A stretch of DNA of 63,994 nucleotides, counting the filler, from Olpidium bornovanus S191 (lineage: Eukaryota > Fungi > Olpidiomycota), in NCBI GenBank assembly GCA_017911155.1. It is 33 parts of 33 records of this genome, joined end to end, with 100 filler letters (N's around TTAATTAATTAA, not from the genome) between each part and the next. Parts side by side here need not be neighbours in the genome. Positions count along the whole stretch, not along the records: positions 23,883 to 26,594 come from JAEFCI010002728.1; 32 more parts are not named here. The stretch is one strand, 5' to 3'. The notes beneath the pieces were generated by a model. It ran no database searches, was not told where the DNA came from, and worked only from the letters and a program-made list of their open reading frames with translations. The position numbers and the translations under genes were made by a program. Below are positions 24,345 to 26,420 of this stretch, piece after piece; position 1 is the first letter of the stretch; every line of letters starts with the position of its first letter.

Positions 24345-24866
24345 GCGAGGGCAGCCGGGTTTACGCCAGCGACAGCGGTCCGCAGTGCAAAAACTCCCCC
24401 TACCCTTCCCCCCCACACCGGCAGCTGCCCCCCCCTTCCTCCCCGCCCCTGCGCGGGCGTAAAAAAAAAAAACGCCGCGGGCCCGCCGTGCGACGTGACG
24501 TTGTCCCGCGGTTTGCGAAAATGCCTGGCGTGAAGGAAAACTCAGGTTTGGCTGCATCCATCAACCTTGGAAGCCTCTCAGGGAAGCAGGTAATGTGGAA
24601 TTACCTTCTCCTGGAAAGGCTCGGATACGGGCCAACAGGACTAATAACAGTGGCGGGACCGGATCCCTTCTGGTCCGACACCGCTTTTAAAAATCCTCCT
24701 CGCTTGATGAGCTTGACAGCTCGTCATCACTCTCGACTGTTGCCGTCATATCCCGTGACACCGAGTGCGGTAAAACCAGGTCCGAAATGTGAATGCAGCT
24801 GCTCCACCCATATTTTTGACGGAGGAGTGGGGTTTAGATCGATGTGATGACGGGGATCCGCAACTT

Positions 24867-25253
24867 TTACGCATTTGACTTCAACCTTTCGGTTTCGGTC
24901 TGCTGACGAGACACACATGGTTTTCGTACCATTTTCATTGCATTGCAACCATTTGAGTATTTTAGTGTGCCGAGGCTCCCAAGAATAAAATCATATCTGA
25001 GGTTGCCTTGAGCAAAAAGATGGAAATGAGCGCTTATGTCGCCTACGACTAATTCCACGTTGGGACACGCGGCATTTAGACTCCCTTGCCCGCATGACGT
25101 AGTTACATCCCATCCCAGACGGGGGTAGTGTATCCAGTTCGCTTTTTCAGCAATCTTCGCATCTGCTACAATAATCTCAGACCCAGGGTTGATTAACGCC
25201 CGCGCAGTACTCTCTGCTGCGGGAATAAAAAATATCGATTTCCTAACACGCAC
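24867..25253 (-). pseudogene. Class I SAM-dependent methyltransferase-like remnant
   Basis: NAACPNVELVVGDISAHF...RYDFILGSLGTLKYSNG resembles the N-P...GDI and DxxxGxPCxxFS segments of C5-MTases, but the catalytic PC is missing. Downstream frames are broken by stops. Confidence 0.35.
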
Positions 25254-25589
25254 GGTGCCAACAAATCGTCCTCAAAAGGACCGAAATTGAAGAGTGTATA
25301 CCCGTCCCTTCCTCCTCGCAAACTTCGACGGATTGGATAGTCGCCTCATTTTTGACGACGTTTGCGGCGTGCCAATGTAGCTTGCCACGATTCCTACCGT
25401 CGGGAGAGTCGAATACACCTGAGCTCCTTGGCGGATCTGATGCGCAATCCGTTTCACGTGCGGGAGAACGTTCTTTGCGTGATGCTTGACAACATTCACG
25501 ACGTGGTTTGCGGCCCGCCCAACTCGCTTCAAGGTATGCCCTGCGTGGTGAACAAAGTTCCAAAAGTTCCAGACCAGTTGTTTTTTTTT
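25243..25589 (-). pseudogene. Amphipathic His/Lys-rich ORF remnant, virion core or membrane-active-like
   Basis: WNFWNFVHHAGHTLKRVGRAANHVVNVVKHHAKNVLPHVKRIAHQIRQGAQVYSTLPTVGIVASYIG; restoring one base at ~25371 continues the reading as HAANVVKNEATIQSVEV. No start codon. Confidence 0.45.
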
Positions 25590-25606
25590 CTACCGTACCA
25601 AAATAA

Positions 25607-26420
25607 ACGGGGAATGGATTCGACTTTTCTTCTCATGCCCCGCCCCGCAAACCGTTCGATCGGAATATCTACTTGATCCCCACGCGGATCAACGCCAAGT
25701 GCTTTCGCGTTAAGCAGGCGATCACCGACTTCAACAAGCAGAACGTACTCTACTGCAAATTCTACCCCAATGCGCCGTTCGGTGATCCGTCGGCTGGCCA
25801 AGAAATTTCGACCTCGGATGGCACTTACACCGGGAGCCAGCTGGCGGAGACAATGCAGAAAATGATGAATGACGCGGTCAATTCAGTCCAATCGCCGGCG
25901 GAGCTGACGGCGGGGACGTATGCCAACACTCCACCTATCGCGTTCGAAGTCGCGTGCAATGAAGGCTCAGAGAAACTTGAATTTATCGTCAAAGTAAAGA
26001 AAACAGCTTTATGAGAAGCGTCTTTCTTTGGTTCAATGAAGAGATTTCCGAATTGATCGGAAACGATTTCCCTTCGCGATTCGTGTGAGAAGCAGGGAGC
26101 CGCGGTGCCGGACGGATCTTGAGGACAACCTCCGGAAGGTTTCTGTCTCTGCCGAGATATTATCGCATATGCTTGAACGCGTTTTCGTGGTTCGGTTACG
26201 GCTACGATGAATCTCGGTCTTCAAAGCACGTTGACCGTAATCCCCATCGGCTACAGCAAGAAATGGACCGTGTGGGAGTGCCAAAACAGCTTTTTTCCGC
26301 GCTCGCGTCGGGGACGAGACGAAACTCTCGCACATGGTTAATTTAGAAGTATTCTTGGAGGAGAGTATAAGGCCGCTGGTCAACCCGGACTTTGCGATCA
26401 ATTTCGACATCCAAAACTAG
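25607..26420 (+). pseudogene. Minor capsid (penton, single jelly-roll)-like pseudogene
   Basis: Motifs occur in the expected order across frames: FRVKQA..NKQNVLY; EISTSDGTYTGSQLAETMQKMMN; FNEEISELIG; LSLPRYYRICLN; TLTVIPIG; KLSHMVNLEVFLEESIRPLVNPDFAINFDIQN*. About 4 frameshifts plus a TGA at 26086. Confidence 0.65.

Follow-up and report, generated by a model that had tools for sequence, protein, structure and literature searches.

A probable decaying viral remnant beside a host gene

The block from 24491 to 26594 in the Olpidium bornovanus S191 assembly is probably what remains of a Polinton-like virus (PLV), now decaying, that had inserted itself immediately upstream of a host gene; it still carries a broken penton gene and the likely start of a major capsid gene. 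Positions count along the window, by which we mean the whole stretch of DNA analyzed (63,994 nucleotides, filler included). The first-pass annotation had read this region as a decayed provirus of the Polinton-like or virophage kind, and this reading finds support in the fold of the penton, in the order of genes on a relative, and in how three copies have decayed, although the methyltransferase that formed part of it was not recovered. The virus block, which had been placed at 24480-26420, is viral but longer than proposed, with the element running beyond 26420 up to the end of its contig (23883-26594, 2712 bp). The features of this contig are collected in Table 1.

Table 1. Features of the contig that carries the element, with strand and evidence.
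Feature	Position	Strand	Evidence
Host gene, first coding exon (flank outside the element)	24013-24344	-	ORF; near-identical contigs in five runs
Host/element boundary, approximate	24460-24491		GC change point at 24460; X10 copy begins at 24491; C and A runs adjoin
Spliced product, directed away from the host gene	24516-24589, 24712-24779, 24966-25081	+	Two GT..AG joints, run X1
Broken reading frame(s), earlier called methyltransferase-like	24550-25271	-	Few stops in two minus frames
Amphipathic-helix ORF, no start codon	25275-25589	-	Hydrophobic moment
Broken penton gene (single jelly-roll minor capsid)	25614-26420	+	Four colinear pieces, family profile
First 39 codons of likely major capsid gene, truncated by contig end	26476-26594	+	Match to L001:558-1787

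The penton gene and its family

The frame of the penton gene changes near 25640, 26000, 26226, and 26290; a stop interrupts it at 26086, and its natural stop is at 26418. The methionine codon at 25614 has a family-like start and stands in another frame than the penton piece that follows it. A search with the open stretch 25607-26011 (135 aa) returned four hits. Two of them, P0001 (266 aa, 48% identity, E 2.6e-25) and P0004 (265 aa, 29%), can each be aligned over 25646-26417 by changing between several frames; the other two, the repeat proteins P0002 and P0003, were left out of the penton alignment. A profile built from P0001 and P0004 found seven intact proteins of 248-283 aa, all environmental. 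The four window pieces fall on this profile (268 positions) in order, at 10-134, 129-205, 205-229, and 225-267, and thus cover positions 10-267. They are 44% identical to P0001 and 33-37% identical to other family members, and the tree places P0001 as the sister of the window penton (support 100/99). Pfam and PDB sequence searches with the family gave no significant match, and no relatives of the penton fragment or of the family profile (A2) were found in IMG/VR. The motif AATAAA occurs just 5' of the penton start (25602) and just 3' of the stop (26427), where it possibly represents a viral poly(A) or promoter motif.

We modeled the fold with AlphaFold from the intact relative P0001, on a seven-sequence alignment, rather than from the broken window copy (pLDDT 74.7); a first fold on a two-sequence alignment was poor (pLDDT 44.6) and was discarded. 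In a Foldseek search of the PDB, the P0001 model had the mavirus penton as its best match (E 2.5e-8), followed by Sputnik and the adenovirus penton base, with identities of 9-14% and TM-scores of 0.35-0.40 to the mavirus and Sputnik pentons. Matches in BFVD were minor capsids of mavirus, TVS1, virophages, giant viruses, and adintoviruses, the adintovirus pentons ranking lower (E 2e-5 to 7e-5). The best six VIA-align matches were capsid chains of PBCV-1 (twice), the mavirus penton, Sputnik, adenovirus, and EhV-201 (Z 9.2-12.8, rmsd 3.6-14.9, 125-244 residues aligned), and the next match had a Z of 6.0. Atlas recognition scores of 2235 and 2154 were under the threshold of 2300. The modeled fold identifies the protein as a penton without separating virus groups. 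The penton-like gene proposed to the right of 25600 is therefore borne out by the coverage of the family profile and by the viral capsid structures matched by the P0001 model, on which the suggested Foldseek comparison was made.

A likely major capsid gene and an intact relative

Among 336 pattern matches, one gave a locus, a JGI metagenome sequence of 6063 bp with a GC content of 0.40 (L001). It carries, in order, a penton gene, a 409-aa gene, a 729-aa fibre-like gene, a 431-aa integrase with rve (3e-10) and chromo (1.5e-15) domains, and a 141-aa gene. The 729-aa gene is a repeat gene, fibre-like, with weak structural hits in PHROGs. The whole of L001:1-6063 has the look of an intact structural and integration module of a Polinton-like element. 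Its penton has the same letters as P0006 and is just 37% identical to the window copy, so the integrase of L001 need not be that of the window virus.

Downstream of the broken penton gene, 26476-26594 matches residues 1-39 of the 409-aa protein of L001 without gaps (14/39 identical, E 3e-6). None of 100,000 shuffles reached its score of 59, and the next best score among 127,750 windows was 27. Because this match to the start of the 409-aa gene lies in the same position as in L001, the two-gene order from penton to 409-aa gene is kept in the window. The 409-aa protein is likely a major capsid, which we take it to resemble. It had no match in Pfam (E<=1), NCBIfam, PHROGs, the PDB, or phages, and its only homologue in the searches was itself; the name is therefore given for its size, its position, and this resemblance. 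A major capsid gene had been expected on other contigs, but its likely start sits on the same contig, at 26476. Searches of IMG/VR with the 409-aa protein and the integrase, and a search of genome contigs, found no relative. A packaging ATPase (A32-like), pPolB, and a protease are absent from both the contig and L001. The window contig stops within the capsid module and has neither an integrase nor terminal repeats.

Decay across copies

Element DNA was found in other runs, and its condition is that of decaying DNA, as argued by a divergence of 7%, indels none of which, among the 12 listed, has a length divisible by three, and a deletion private to one copy. The soil metagenome X10 holds five pieces over 24491-26356, with divergences of 5.9-8.0%. 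They differ from the window element at 120/1666 bases (7.2%), evenly along the block. The longer of two host pieces in X10 differs at 10/319 bases, significantly less than the element (Fisher p 0.006), and the shorter (24263-24393) at 8/131 (6.1%), which is near the element rate. Some X10 indels, among those listed, lie at the frame changes of the window copy and others are its own, in addition to a 99-base deletion. The copy in X12 equals the window over 26039-26297, with no substitutions and the internal stop included, but lacks 8 bases. The 39 listed X10 substitutions are distributed over codon positions as 19/12/8, and CpG contexts hold 8/23 transitions against 130/485 sites; neither count is decisive.

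Both host and element pieces occur in X10, and both occur in X1 at 99+% identity, which speaks for residence in the nucleus. We infer that the X10 copy lies at the same site as the window copy. Separate lesions in the three copies are what a dead insertion drifting in host strains would be expected to show.

Composition and the boundary with host DNA

The block had been set apart by a different texture, lower GC, and no long G or C runs. GC does fall, from 0.77 in the host exon to 0.50 in 24491-26594, where G runs are at most 5 and C runs at most 4 letters long, but four of 122 one-kb windows of other contigs likewise have a GC of at most 0.52 without a G or C run above 5. The texture alone is thus uncommon, not unique, and only moderately unusual. 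The 4-mer comparison with host contigs has a similar outcome: the likelihood of the block (-1.393) is under that of all 32 other contigs, but the lowest of those is close (-1.387).

The best GC change point is at 24460 (log-likelihood ratio 53.9), and runs of A12 and C8 sit at the boundary. The junction between host and element is as joined in this assembly. Across about 24450-24520, where the first-pass annotation had called for spanning reads, none of the pieces listed from 8 of 24 runs bridges 24433-24491, a gap that proves nothing. Nor did the search for more copies add any, blastn and tblastx of the element against the rest of the window giving no match elsewhere. No long repeat was found within the contig, on which at most one end of the element could lie, and no exact end or target-site duplication was located.

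Leftward reading frames and a spliced product

Over 24491-25600, two minus frames contain 6-7 stops and the other four contain 10-19, and a leftward gene or two is likely here. The amphipathic ORF to the left of 25600 withstood comparison with background: its mean moment of 0.59 was reached by 1/8509 background stretches, a background that includes the ORF itself. It is a putative membrane-active or core virion protein, possibly, and database searches including IMG/VR found no homologue. The methyltransferase-like ORF fared worse. The minus frame at 24550-25271 had no match, to a methyltransferase or otherwise, in Pfam, NCBIfam, PHROGs, the PDB, phages, or IMG/VR, although the absence is weak for a frame so broken. 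From its composition and uniform divergence we infer that this stretch may be of viral origin; the left 1.1 kb, for which no homologue was found, might also be partly host DNA. A word on the plus strand near 25340, which we took to be Walker-B-like, was dropped, having no Walker A and lying antisense to the better minus frame.

The block had also been described as free of introns. Two contigs of run X1, 99+% identical to the window, nonetheless lack 24590-24711 and 24780-24965, and both gaps have GT..AG ends on the plus strand. Each joint is covered by one contig, the shorter sides being 70 and 28 letters. The spliced product runs antisense to the left ORFs, and its longest Met-start ORF has 60 codons, so it is likely non-coding. 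Splicing in X1 points to nuclear residence. The RNA nature of X1, X2, X3, X5, and X8 is a guess, no run being recorded as RNA; a match of X3 to 25024-25182, 100% identical and free of joints, is uninformative about transcription. In X1 there is, besides, an unspliced contig across 24750-24837, and X10 is without 24542-24640, including the first donor site. Because the joints come from one run that also has an unspliced contig, and because X10 is without the first donor, we think it likelier that a divergent promoter transcript was cut at splice sites present by chance; the missing donor also leads us to doubt a function. It is unlikely, in our view, that the host co-opted the insertion in its promoter, with the spliced antisense RNA serving a regulatory or antiviral role and the locus giving an undescribed PLV lineage its first host link.

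The host gene and other contigs of the window

The normal GC-rich host exon described at 24013-24344 is confirmed by contigs of 99+% identity in X1, X2, and X6, with a furthest reach of 24433, and in X5 and X8, which reach 24416 and 24369. One of these contigs has its loose end at 24010, which is what splicing to a next exon would give. The exon has a hydrophobic, signal-peptide-like start, matched no Pfam family, and ends just before the intron in what we take to be an EF-hand-like word.

The remaining contigs carry what are by similarity ordinary eukaryotic genes, for kinesin, ABCF, WD40, HMG-CoA synthase, CK2 beta, Nop25, Rpp40, and a SPA domain. The HMG-CoA synthase scores higher against human than against plant chains, and the SPA domain is presumably of a mainly fungal type. 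These genes speak for a eukaryotic and likely opisthokont host, for which the early-diverging fungus of the first-pass annotation is plausible. The kinesin host exon at 4397-6085 (+) runs for 563 codons without stop or intron, includes a DUF3694 domain, and has a 4-mer texture almost as atypical as that of the viral block. Four further contigs (30225-32162, 42563-44679, 55760-56787, and 59575-60704) have low 4-mer likelihood and few homopolymers. They had no Pfam match in the ORFs scanned and no similarity to the element or L001, and they could be further foreign or decayed DNA. An integrase zinc-binding domain (PF17921) at 50961-51503 (+) likely marks a fragment of an LTR retrotransposon. There was no Rfam hit in the window. 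The spacers between contigs, runs of N around TTAATTAATTAA, are an assembly linker and not biology.

Origin of the element

The ancestor would have been a small non-enveloped dsDNA virus with a module of penton, major capsid, and fibre, and its insertion into nuclear DNA may have been the work of an rve-chromodomain integrase such as L001 encodes. Integration would have taken place about 60 bases past the 5' limit observed for the host transcript. With selection lost, substitutions and frame-breaking indels would now have gathered in separate host strains, and no particle proteins would be made from the locus. The host promoter likely fires weakly in the opposite direction, and the spliceosome would then use chance GT-AG sites in the fossil.

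Other viral groups could have supplied the same penton. A remnant of a giant virus (Nucleocytoviricota, as a Mycodnaviridae-like or Mriyavirus-like small relative) in place of a PLV or Polinton would agree with VIA-align, where the top PBCV-1 capsid chain (Z 12.8) is about tied with the mavirus penton (11.4), with the many giant-virus minor capsids that match the P0001 model in BFVD, and with Atlas neighbours that include DUF5901 clusters (14-17% of members). Giant viruses are also reported from zoosporic fungi, five of them with Polinton-like integrases (PMC13533422). We consider such an origin improbable, however, given that Foldseek places the mavirus penton first in the PDB, that penton, 409-aa gene, fibre, and integrase fit within 5.3 kb of L001, and that the 409-aa protein is without a Pfam family at E<=1. 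A scan of 194 other window ORFs found no NCLDV-type capsid or core replication family. A true virophage (Lavidaviridae-type, mavirus-like) that relied on a giant virus infecting the same host is likewise hard to credit. The mavirus and Sputnik pentons are the best solved-structure matches, the Atlas row PF21507 V18-19 stands at 0.95, and L001 has an rve integrase, but the low identities and TM-scores to those two pentons, the lack of a sequence match between the 409-aa gene and a solved virophage capsid, and the absence of virophage protease and ATPase from the contig and L001 speak against it.

The viral stretch could instead be real but misjoined to the host exon at the C and A runs, or come from another organism in the sample, as might happen in a short-contig, homopolymer-rich assembly with A12 and C8 at the very boundary. 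This is very improbable in view of X1, where host exon and element pieces are both 99+% identical and the element is spliced, and of X10, which has both sides and an element copy starting at 24491. A free virus, moreover, would not carry such frame-breaking indels in three copies. A decayed PLV integrated in the host genome remains our preferred explanation.

Comparison with known systems

That few such viruses are described in early-diverging fungi, as had been supposed, does not hold. PLVs have been described as integrated in the Spizellomyces punctatus group and Allomyces macrogynus (PMC7805220) and in numerous chytrid genomes, along with chytrid and Glomus/Rhizophagus ATPases (bioRxiv 10.64898/2026.06.19.733378). 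Other sources report MELD viruses in Powellomyces (PMC8502044), 153 fungal assemblies with dsDNA viral regions (bioRxiv 10.1101/2025.04.19.649669), and zoosporic fungi infected by giant viruses (PMC13533422). Events of this type are thus well documented and the surprise is limited: the lineage is new, but fungi and protists have already yielded others of its kind. With it, a group of small DNA viruses so far represented by the seven environmental penton sequences and the 6-kb contig L001 is linked to the genome of a eukaryote. Insertions of this kind are not purged but remain, decaying, in several strains. Because fossils so broken escape ORF-based capsid screens, these viruses are likely undercounted where fungal and protist assemblies are fragmented. 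New probes are available in the A2 profile and the 409-aa protein of L001.

With the fungal PLVs, compared here by their published descriptions, the element shares a small-virus capsid module in a eukaryote assembly and, in L001, an rve integrase and fibre. It differs in that the window copy is a broken 2-kb scrap whose penton has only seven environmental relatives, at 33-44% identity. The rve integrase with a chromodomain on L001 is shared with Mavericks/Polintons (adintoviruses), which carry a chromodomain on the integrase and small membrane-active genes in their virion modules (PMC8502044), whereas pPolB, protease, and ATPase are absent from the contig and L001. The amphipathic ORF may resemble those small genes in kind only, and kinship to cupiennin-like or pVI-like proteins is not claimed. 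The virophage core is given as major capsid, penton, ATPase, and protease (PMC8547959). The penton family is shorter than the virophage proteins (about 265 aa against 300-360), is 9-14% identical to them, and comes with no virophage-type capsid match, but it shares with the mavirus penton (PDB 6G41/6G42) and the Sputnik minor capsid (3J26 chain N) a jelly-roll base with an inserted crown domain.
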